Part shown: one piece after another, positions 11,906 through 12,337 of the stretch
Position numbering within the stretch: position 1 is the first letter of the stretch
Layout: each line of letters starts with the position of its first letter
Assembly (NCBI GenBank): GCA_001796335.1
Contig: MGMF01000001.1
Location: forward strand, 358,657 to 390,656
DNA: 32,000 nt
Reading direction: 5' to 3'
DNA from: Chloroflexi bacterium GWB2_49_20
Lineage (GTDB): Bacteria > Chloroflexota > Anaerolineae > Anaerolineales > Villigracilaceae
Notes under the pieces: generated by a model
Database searches by the model: none
What the model saw: the letters and a program-made list of their open reading frames with translations, nothing else
What the model was told of the DNA's origin: nothing
Position numbers and translations under genes: made by a program

Positions 11906-11933
11906 TTGACATATAGACAATTATCGATATAAT
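11906..11933 (+). promoter_or_regulatory. sigma-70-type promoter of arsR (TTGACA-16-TATAAT)
   Basis: ttgaca at 11906-11911, a 16-nt spacer, tataat at 11928-11933, about 22 nt before the ATG at 11955. Confidence 0.6.
11910..11931. promoter_or_regulatory. operator-like imperfect palindrome, site 1 (CATATAGACAATTATCGATATA)
   Basis: It fills the -35/-10 spacer of the arsR promoter. The halves ATATAGACAA and TTATCGATAT are inverted with 8 of 10 positions matching. It matches site 2 at 18 of 22 positions. An extra half-site CATATAGAC lies at 11936-11944. Confidence 0.5.
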
Positions 11934-11954
11934 ATCATATAGACGAACTTCAAT

Positions 11955-12269
11955 ATGACAAAACCAAACCCTGTACTTTTTGCCAAAGCCCTGGCAGATG
12001 CCACCCGCCAAAAGATCATGAACCTGTGCTGCTGCAAGTGGTTGTCTGTTAACGAAATTGTGGAGCAGATCAATGTCTCGCAACCCACTGTCTCACATCA
12101 TCTTGCCATCCTGCGCGAGGCTGGATTGGTGGAGACACGCCATGAAGGCAAGCAGATTTTCTACACCCTGGATCAGGACAAAGTGGCCACATGTTGCGGA
12201 AACCTGGTGACTAAATTCGCCCCGGATAGTAAAACCGCCGGAATTATCAAGATCAACGAAACCATTTGA
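11955..12269 (+). CDS. arsR: ArsR/SmtB-family metalloregulator
   Basis: 104 aa. Winged HTH (LSVNEIVEQINVSQPTVSHHLAILREAGLV). A Cys triplet (NLCCCKW) sits where ArsR carries its ELCVCDL As(III) site. Confidence 0.9.
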   Translation: MTKPNPVLFAKALADATRQKIMNLCCCKWLSVNEIVEQINVSQPTVSHHLAILREAGLVETRHEGKQIFYTLDQDKVATCCGNLVTKFAPDSKTAGIIKINETI

Positions 12270-12275
12270 CCTGAT

Positions 12276-12310
12276 GGACATGGGTTTTTGACCCTGTCCA
12301 CTCTTTTTTT
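12276..12310 (+). terminator. rho-independent terminator between arsR and arsM
   Basis: ggacatgggt (12276-12285) pairs with accctgtcc (12291-12299): 9 bp with one bulged T. It is followed by aCTCTTTTTTT. Confidence 0.6.
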
Positions 12311-12315
12311 GACTA

Positions 12316-12337
12316 TTCATAGATAACTGTCTATATG
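12316..12337. promoter_or_regulatory. operator-like site 2 (reverse orientation) within a putative arsM-hgcAB promoter
   Basis: The reverse complement of 12316-12337 is CATATAGACAGTTATCTATGAA, matching site 1 at 18 of 22 positions. It sits between TTGACT (12309-12314) and TATATG (12332-12337), 12 nt before the arsM ATG. Confidence 0.5.

Follow-up and report, generated by a model that had tools for sequence, protein, structure and literature searches.

A 16-bp palindrome at arsR and ahead of arsM-hgcAB is the probable operator of an ArsR-type regulator in Chloroflexi bacterium GWB2_49_20

In Chloroflexi bacterium GWB2_49_20, an organism known solely as a metagenome-assembled genome, the mercury methylation genes hgcA and hgcB follow arsM in a cluster that opens with arsR, the gene of an ArsR/SmtB-family regulator. 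Our analysis of a 32-kb stretch of this genome (the window, to whose numbering all positions refer) revealed three copies of one palindrome at this locus, which are, with high probability, binding sites of the ArsR encoded at 11955-12269, and place arsM-hgcAB under its predicted control. Two of them, O1 and O2, are located at the arsR promoter and leader, while the third, O3, lies between an intrinsic terminator behind arsR and the start of arsM. The explanation as a whole, with ArsR bound at O1 to O3 and O3 acting on read-through from the arsR promoter, appears to us somewhat more probable than its competitors taken together.

The initial annotation had pointed to two operator-like sites of about 22 bp, both of which were confirmed when the sequences were read. 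Site 1 (11910-11931), CATATAGACAATTATCGATATA, lies between TTGACA (11906-11911) and TATAAT (11928-11933), and site 2 (12316-12337, reverse complement), CATATAGACAGTTATCTATGAA, between TTGACT (12309-12314) and TATATG (12332-12337). Of 22 positions, 18 agree in the two sites, among them the initial 10 nt without exception. Within the window the motif is not a common repeat, as a search with ATATAGACANTTATC at up to two mismatches returned these two sites only (0.13 expected). The palindromic nature of the sites is supported by a footprint in about 60 loci, but the conserved core in the comparison loci is a 16-bp 6-4-6 palindrome, ATAGAC-N4-GTCTAT, from which a weak flanking symmetry reaches to about 22 bp only (-2 A with +18 T, -3 T with +19 R). 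Similarly, CATATAGAC, present again at 11936-11944, had been read as a half-site; the sequence does recur there, but it is part of a complete third operator, O2, and the repeat finder reports 11935-11958 as an inverted repeat on its own. Neither O2 as a full operator nor the intrinsic terminator at 12273-12310, just upstream of site 2, had been mentioned. The elements at the arsR promoter are as follows:

11906-11911, plus strand: -35 element TTGACA of the arsR promoter (promoter scan 12/12, 16-nt spacer)
11913-11928, no strand: predicted operator O1, ATAGACAATTATCGAT, a 6-4-6 palindrome in the -35/-10 spacer (weight-matrix score 28.3; site 1 is its extended form)
11928-11933, plus strand: -10 element TATAAT of the arsR promoter, whose first T is the final base of O1
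11939-11954, no strand: predicted operator O2, ATAGACGAACTTCAAT (weight-matrix score 22.7), offset by 26 bp from O1 and abutting the arsR ATG
11955-12269, plus strand: arsR, encoding a 104-residue ArsR/SmtB-family regulator (Pfam HTH_5, PF01022, 54.2 bits against a cut-off of 22; NCBIfam NF033788, 86.6 against 55)

For comparison, we assembled 89 loci encoding ArsR homologues, nine from a genome collection and 80 from metagenomes, with a total of 345.6 kb, of which 153.7 kb was treated as arsR neighbourhood and 191.9 kb as remainder. A weight matrix built from these other loci, with the window excluded, finds exactly three sites in the window, at 11913-11928 (28.3), 12319-12334 (23.4) and 11939-11954 (22.7); the next-best window site scores 4.5 and the top score in 50 shuffles was 17.1. 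The degenerate operator used for counting, AT[AC]GA[CT]-N4-[GA]TC[GT]AT, has 105 perfect matches in the 345.6 kb, where about 0.3 would be expected as calculated from base frequencies, and 103 of these lie in the arsR neighbourhood as opposed to two in the remainder. The operator is carried by 58/63 loci with an ArsR identity of at least 56% and by 7/26 below this value. Its positions relative to the -35 and -10 elements, the ATG and the terminator are base-exact across loci, and its recurrence at equivalent positions of about 60 related loci constitutes a phylogenetic footprint.

The promoter scan identified the arsR promoter, TTGACA-16-TATAAT, as a 12/12 match to the sigma-70 consensus, in agreement with the earlier placement of site 1. 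TTGACA is found at operator positions -7 to -2, with O1 in the TTGACA/TATAAT spacer, in all of the distinct orthologous sequences on which conservation of this promoter type was judged (43/43), and the O1-type consensus reads CTCTTGACAaATAGAC-N4-aTCtATATAAT. Transcription of arsR is predicted to start at about 11940, some 7 nt past the -10 element and within the first bases of O2, so that O2 spans the predicted start and the entire short leader up to the arsR ATG. Likewise, the second operator of related loci ends at the ATG of the operon's first gene, and tandem upstream operators are most often 26 bp apart (21 cases), the distance being 25 bp in six cases and 27 bp in three. The right halves of orthologous O2 sites are better than that of the window (for example ATAGACGAGTATCGAT), and in many loci the O2 centre holds the GG of the ribosome-binding site. 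Syntenic orthologues, which share the order GT4-arsR-arsM-hgcA-hgcB-tetR and have ArsR identities of 81-96%, keep O1, O2 and O3; their block from the -35 element to the ATG is nearly invariant, and the sequence upstream of the -35 element is unalignable. An inverted repeat overlapping the regulator's own promoter or start is characteristic of ArsR/SmtB operator-promoters, and such repeats are found here as O1 in the spacer and O2 over the predicted start and leader. Bound ArsR would therefore be expected to shut its own promoter. From the footprint, together with the covariation of helix and half-site described below, we infer that arsR is autoregulated through O1 and O2, as had been proposed.

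Variants of this arrangement were observed around related arsR genes. At L017 (565-888), L001 (1602), L028 (1771), L029 (643) and L040 (882), the operon opens ahead of arsR with a gene for a protein of 106-112 residues with conserved C-N-M and ER-x-CCPFL motifs, and O2 abuts the ATG of this gene instead of that of arsR; the protein has no family match in Pfam or NCBIfam. A patatin-like phospholipase gene divergent from the arsR operon (L029 559-574, L031, L039) was considered as a regulon member and rejected: it has a normal TTGACA-17-TATAGT promoter, and the operator-like sequence in its spacer matches at 11/12 positions in L029 and has decayed in L031 and L039. At L071, L072 and L073, whose ArsR is about 52% identical, half-sites ATAGAC and ATCTAT or ATCAAT occur upstream of arsR 12 nt apart, not four. 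L079 carries a perfect operator, ATAGACAGTTATCTAT, just 3' of a TTGACA-17-TAACAT promoter (70-135) ahead of a ClpB-like gene; the sole ArsR homologue on this contig is 46% identical and encoded 3.4 kb away.

The ArsR of the window matches a protein of Chloroflexi bacterium GWB2_49_20 at 100% identity, and its thousands of homologues come mainly from Chloroflexi/Anaerolineales metagenome-assembled genomes. Relatives of known structure in the PDB are BigR, SrnR, CzrA, SmtB and ArsR, with BigR (3pqj, E = 9e-13) the nearest. Base 3 of the operator half-site covaries with the recognition helix of the cognate ArsR (Fisher p = 9e-12, uncorrected for shared ancestry): proteins with SHHLA/S go with ATAGAC half-sites, base 3 being A in 169/218 half-sites, and proteins with SHHLK go with ATTGAY or ATCGAY, base 3 being T or C in 21/22, while the promoter architecture is unchanged. 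Given the co-occurrence of operator and ArsR across genomes and this covariation, ArsR is by far the best candidate for the protein predicted to bind the palindrome. Four cysteines, Cys26, Cys27, Cys80 and Cys81, do not vary among 39 aligned homologues. The sequence NLCCCKWLSV departs from the canonical As(III) site of R773 ArsR, ELCVC(D) at the start of helix alpha-3. A two-cysteine sensor of the BigR/SqrR type was considered as well and rejected, as the cysteines, placed by the offset of the match to BigR, are off its Cys42 and Cys108. Most likely, the inducer would be a trivalent arsenical sensed by the Cys26/27 and Cys80/81 pairs.

Downstream of O3, the window contains a compact unit:

12340-12343, plus strand: Shine-Dalgarno-like AGGA, 5 nt ahead of the arsM ATG, with AAGGAG-type sequences at the same place in orthologues
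12349-13083, plus strand: arsM, 244 residues, arsenite S-adenosylmethionine methyltransferase family (NCBIfam NF008823, 306.1 against a cut-off of 263; Pfam Methyltransf_31; substrate predicted)
13084-14115, plus strand: hgcA, corrinoid protein of mercury methylation (NCBIfam NF040863, 410.3 against 275; NVWCAAGK motif)
14128-14400, plus strand: hgcB, 2[4Fe-4S] ferredoxin of mercury methylation (NCBIfam NF040864, 106.5 against 99)
14447-14478, plus strand: terminator-like 14-bp hairpin closing the arsM-hgcA-hgcB unit (terminator scan)

Both hgcA and hgcB are equivalog-level matches, and NVWCAAGK agrees with the cap-helix motif N(V/I)WCA(A/G)GK. The hgcA open reading frame begins at TTG 13084, and the gene calls of orthologues (L090, L093, L096) correspond to ATG 13111. 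With 0-27 nt between arsM and hgcA and 12 nt between hgcA and hgcB, the three genes form one tight unit, and there is no room for a separate promoter between arsM and hgcA. Across the comparison loci, the first gene behind each downstream operator, identified from its translation, is arsM in most cases; the operator stands directly ahead of hgcA in L014, L027, L032 and L038, and ahead of an ArsP_1 permease gene (PF03773) or of genes for tiny Cys-rich peptides in others. In a further group, arsR leads directly into hgcA (L002, L048) or arsM (L023, L047) with neither terminator nor O3 in between, so that hgcA and arsM of these loci can only be read from the arsR promoter. As several independent arrangements agree, it is well supported that hgcAB belongs to the predicted regulon of this ArsR clade.

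The companion genes showed several features of their own. The ArsP_1 permeases have a TP(L/F)CSCG motif (L017 1466-2431, L041 3899-4852, L065 3940; also L013, L026 and L031), and in their operator modules TATAAT or TATAAA stands at the register that the -10 element occupies in the arsR promoter. The peptides, of 24-29 residues and ending in GCC or GGCC (for example MNELKVINKCSDEECEGGCCGGGGCC), are encoded directly behind an ArsR operator with a very strong Shine-Dalgarno sequence, GAAAGGAGGTGA; such genes were found in L017 (1256-1336), L003 (804-887), L013, L014 (3411), L015, L016, L019, L026, L028, L029, L031, L033, L035, L039 and L052. They have no match in Pfam or NCBIfam, and the window has no such gene. 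Directly 3' of hgcB, genes for a TetR-family protein and a NAD-dependent epimerase are conserved (window 14611-16221, L093 10543-12968, L096 10603-13029), together with a short-chain dehydrogenase gene in the two orthologues L093 and L096, and TetR homologues also follow arsM or hgcAB in L003, L020, L032 and L036.

The region between arsR and arsM comprises the following elements:

12273-12310, plus strand: intrinsic terminator 3' of arsR, consisting of a hairpin (12273-12303) and a U7 tract (12304-12310); -15.5 kcal/mol, z-score -4.2
12309-12314, plus strand: -35-like TTGACT, formed by the last two T of the terminator T-run and GACT; lineage-specific
12319-12334, no strand: predicted operator O3, ATAGATAACTGTCTAT, 8 nt past the T-run and 5 nt before the arsM Shine-Dalgarno sequence (weight-matrix score 23.4; site 2 is its extended form)
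12332-12337, plus strand: -10-like TATATG, formed by TAT of O3 and ATG; probably non-functional as a -10 element

The terminator has the features expected of an intrinsic one, a stable GC-containing hairpin with an immediate U-tract, and an equivalent hairpin and T-run precede nearly all O3-type operators. In 44/46 O3 modules the last T of the run is located at -11 from the operator, the order then being purine, 10 nt, operator. The O3-type consensus was drawn from 55 sequences, and O3 is strictly conserved in the syntenic orthologues. The Shine-Dalgarno sequence begins 3-5 nt after the O3-type operator and moves with the start codon, serving a GTG start in L096. The distance between T-run and O3, usually 10 nt, is reduced to 8 nt in the window and its 96%-identical orthologues, and it is this loss of 2 nt that yields the 17-nt TTGACT/TATATG arrangement in the window lineage.

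Based on these arrangements, we propose that the arsR promoter would drive the entire arsR-arsM-hgcA-hgcB cluster and that the terminator 3' of arsR would attenuate read-through. O3 would then act as an internal operator at which bound ArsR blocks those polymerases which pass or reach the terminator, so that arsR could keep a basal level while arsM-hgcAB stay off, and the inducer would free ArsR from all three sites. Read-through is favoured because in this family the regulator gene commonly comes first and is co-transcribed with its targets, because some members of the clade have neither terminator nor operator between arsR and hgcA, because the arsR promoter is a perfect consensus and stronger than a repressor gene alone should need, and because the O3 modules have no conserved promoter. 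Taken by itself, the proposition that O3 works on read-through transcription and not inside a promoter of its own is evenly balanced in our judgement. RNA polymerase stalls roughly 10-14 bp ahead of a bound protein, and the rigid distance between U-tract and operator would fit a roadblock that halts polymerase in the termination zone; alternatively, it may represent the minimal spacing that lets termination finish before the collision. It might even be speculated, with considerable reservation, that the composite of terminator, 10 nt and operator is a conditional terminator worked by a DNA-binding repressor. In such a device, ArsR just downstream would hold RNA polymerase on the U-tract and render a leaky terminator tight, and its release by the inducer would open read-through, so that a single transcript could give basal repressor and inducible hgcAB and arsenic genes. 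The composite recurs before arsM, hgcA, arsP and the genes for Cys-rich peptides at the spacing fixed in 44/46 modules, and we know of no description of a conditional terminator of this kind in the ArsR family.

Several findings weigh against the reading proposed here, at the level of both the regulator and the read-through. The right half of O2 in the window is degenerate (TTCAAT), and the arsR leader has no clear Shine-Dalgarno sequence, the GG-containing centre of most orthologues being missing; translation of arsR in the window may be inefficient or use a mechanism other than Shine-Dalgarno pairing. When anchored on the SQP of the recognition helix in an alignment by eye, the Cys triplet is placed 5-7 residues N-terminal of Cys32, Cys34 and Cys37 of R773 ArsR. 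The shared ancestry left in the covariation test belongs here as well, as does the effector, the assignment of which draws entirely on regulon content and the cysteines. With a stem of 11 pairs and U7, the terminator looks strong, its efficiency being predicted from the fold only, and some related loci have two or three terminator-operator modules in series. Since read-through alone might give very little distal expression past strong terminators in series, this arrangement argues for some promoter activity at O3, and a non-canonical promoter would account equally well for the fixed distance from T-run to operator. Read-through accordingly has a serious rival in weak non-canonical promoters at O3. 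What had initially been suggested is an independent sigma-70 promoter for arsM-hgcAB (TTGACT at 12309-12314, 17 nt, TATATG at 12332-12337) with O3 in its spacer, occlusion by ArsR and a nearly leaderless transcript. The hexamers are indeed present with 9/12 matches, G occupying position 6 of the -10 element, and the pair is missing from the promoter scan output because it does not end in T. The hexamers come after a canonical terminator, so that the downstream genes would seem to need a promoter of their own, the T-run keeps its distance to the operator as a promoter element would, and in the ArsP-type modules TATAAT or TATAAA occupies operator positions 16 to +21, the register of the arsR -10 element. 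However, this geometry is unique to the window lineage: the T-run of 44/46 modules ends 2 nt further from the operator, so that their spacer would measure 19 nt, and no conserved pair of -35 and -10 elements spaced by 16-18 nt is found in front of arsM, neither L093 nor L096 having one. Even close orthologues do not keep the -35-like hexamer, which is TTGTCA in the 96%-identical L090-92, TTGCTC and two nt further off in L093, and absent in L096; among the O3 modules, TTG follows the T-run in 23/55 and TTGAC or TTGCC in 14/55. Under a strict rule, promoter-like sites occur in 4/55 O3 modules and under a relaxed one in 8/55, compared with 7.9 in shuffled sequences, with no shared position, whereas the arsR-type promoter is present in 43/43. 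Moreover, with TATATG ending at 12337, transcription would start at about 12344, past the AGGA at 12340-12343, and leave no ribosome-binding site on the mRNA, a conflict that recurs in orthologues. As the Shine-Dalgarno sequence tracks the start codon, including the GTG of L096, the mRNA must begin upstream of it, which TATATG as a -10 element does not allow. The earlier remark that such an arsM transcript would be nearly leaderless was therefore well placed, and the start codon is in fact close to TATATG, although the ATG at 12349 is 11 nt behind it and not 12. We consider this promoter unlikely, though by no means negligible. What stands of the original proposal of direct repression is ArsR-type control of arsM-hgcAB, through footprint, covariation and the operators directly ahead of hgcA in four loci; what does not is the promoter with the operator in its spacer. 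In both cases, ArsR would control arsM-hgcAB.

The remaining rivals concern the palindrome as such. It might be bound by another regulator, for example the TetR-family protein encoded 3' of hgcB (14611-15195), with ArsR a mere neighbour. TetR proteins likewise bind short palindromes, and a conserved tetR gene follows hgcB or arsM in the window, L003, L020, L032, L036, L093 and L096. Yet the operator tracks arsR in 58/63 loci, most of which show no tetR, the palindrome occupies the arsR promoter and start codon, its half-sites covary with the ArsR recognition helix, and tetR of the window has no such site upstream, the best other site scoring 4.5; we consider TetR binding very improbable. Just as improbable is a role as mRNA stem-loops in stability, processing or translational control. 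Read-through would place O2 and O3 on the mRNA, where either might fold into a 6-bp stem beside the ribosome-binding site, and the O2 centre contains a Shine-Dalgarno-like GG in many loci. O1, however, precedes the transcription start, being located in the promoter spacer; further, it is the half-site sequence itself which is conserved, without the compensatory change expected of an RNA stem, the covariation with the ArsR helix speaks against an RNA-level role, and no Rfam match was obtained in window positions 11000-15000 at E-values up to 1. Finally, the AT-richness of the region and the general frequency of short AT-rich palindromes would be compatible with chance similarity or a dispersed genomic repeat that has no regulatory role. 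Against this stand the confinement of the three sites in 32 kb to the arsR locus, the wide margin by which they outscore the next one, the 103 sites near arsR versus two distant ones, and base-exact positions relative to -35, -10, ATG and terminator, so that this explanation has next to no weight.

Candidates for a different kind of start site at the O3 modules were likewise examined and rejected. A sigma-70 -10 element at operator positions 12-17, 13-18, 14-19 or 16 to +21, or upstream, is conserved in none of these registers. For sigma-54 (GG-N10-GC), compared with the consensus by eye, the G/C after the T-run is misspaced and a -24 element is absent, and a promoter of the extracytoplasmic function type (AAC...CGTC) was dismissed since the identical right half-site occurs in the canonical arsR promoter. 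The T-tract as an UP element together with a -10 element at 16 to +21 fits the ArsP-type modules with TATAAT or TATAAA, but in the peptide and arsM modules the start would fall after the Shine-Dalgarno sequence. Leaderless arsM mRNAs would have their ATG at +28 to +37 from the operator, with an exact fit in L018 and L021 only, and GTG starts with good Shine-Dalgarno sequences argue against them. Tandem modules (operator, hairpin, T-run, about 10 nt, operator) stand ahead of a single gene in L065 (3845-3921), L037 (1387-1474) and L050 (3720-3809); a perfect TATAAT stands behind the first operator of L065, and a short transcript from there would meet hairpin, T-tract and second operator.

The kind of system is familiar, that is, an ArsR-type autoregulated operator-promoter, to which a terminator-coupled internal operator is added. 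As in the classical operator-promoters of SmtB at smtA (with tandem S1/S2 and S3/S4 repeats), CzrA, CadC and R773 ArsR, a dimeric winged-helix repressor is predicted to be encoded by the first gene of the operon and to bind imperfect inverted repeats, sometimes in tandem, over promoter and start. Unlike in these, a third operator lies inside the operon behind a terminator, and the putative sensor cysteines form two vicinal pairs instead of the ELCVC of R773 ArsR. O3 may also be compared to repressor roadblocks and auxiliary operators such as lac O2, about 400 bp downstream of O1, or the CodY and CcpA roadblocks of Bacillus. Like lac O2, it is internal to the transcription unit, some 400 bp away from the operator at the promoter, and a site of this type adds to repression through blocked elongation or looping; in contrast to all of them, O3 is locked at 10 nt (8 nt in the window) from the U-tract of an intrinsic terminator, and the combination is repeated before each regulon gene. 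To our knowledge, the ArsR family offers no other example of a terminator-locked internal operator. MerR-type promoters have their operator in an over-long 19-bp spacer, and most O3 modules would similarly have TTGMC and TAT(A/T)TG 19 nt apart around the palindrome; this is a resemblance only, as the regulator is of the ArsR family, the hexamers are not conserved and the distance in the window is 17 nt. The family norm has been stated as a 12-2-12 repeat (PMC5658604), from which the 6-4-6 core differs, being no 12-2-12 repeat of the TGAA type.

With regard to mercury methylation, the closest parallel is Pseudodesulfovibrio mercurii ND132, where the gene of ArsR2 is located directly upstream of hgcAB and co-transcribed with it, and the protein is an arsenic-responsive repressor (Gionfriddo et al., bioRxiv 10.1101/2022.10.17.512643; AEM 2023). 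Co-transcription of arsR and hgcA in P. hydrargyri BerOc1 is cited there from Goni-Urriza et al. (2020). A lake metatranscriptome shows lower expression of hgcA where an arsR-like gene lies upstream of it, and the arsR-like genes are themselves transcribed at a slightly higher level than hgcA (PMC11984097). As in ND132, an ArsR-family gene sits upstream of hgcAB in the window. In contrast, homologues of ND132 ArsR2 were reported in Desulfovibrionaceae only, and Cys26/47/49/86/88 were described (bioRxiv 10.1101/2022.10.17.512643), while the ArsR of the window is a Chloroflexi protein with invariant Cys26/27/80/81, as compared by position numbers. The window additionally has arsM between arsR and hgcA, a terminator and an internal operator, and a cis-element can be defined for it; the words operator and promoter are absent from the ND132 paper and from the rice-paddy paper, and a literature search for a published operator or transcription start of hgcA gave nothing relevant.

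In mercury biogeochemistry, the regulation and the native role of hgcAB are both open questions. The link between ArsR and hgcAB is known genetically from one Desulfovibrionaceae model; what is added here, as far as can be read from DNA, is a precise motif and a direct cis-link to hgcAB, and the motif covers a large uncultured Chloroflexi (Anaerolineae-type) ArsR clade. It might be searched for in metagenomes to predict repressed or inducible hgcAB and could seed a biosensor, and the fixed spacing between terminator and operator poses a separate mechanistic question. Judging from the companion genes, the signal would be trivalent or methylated arsenic. As hgcA shares its operator with arsM, an ArsP-type permease gene and genes for small Cys-rich peptides, this arrangement argues that hgcAB would be switched on together with (methyl)arsenic-handling genes in these bacteria, and such co-regulation is consistent with mercury methylation being a side activity of a metalloid-related function.

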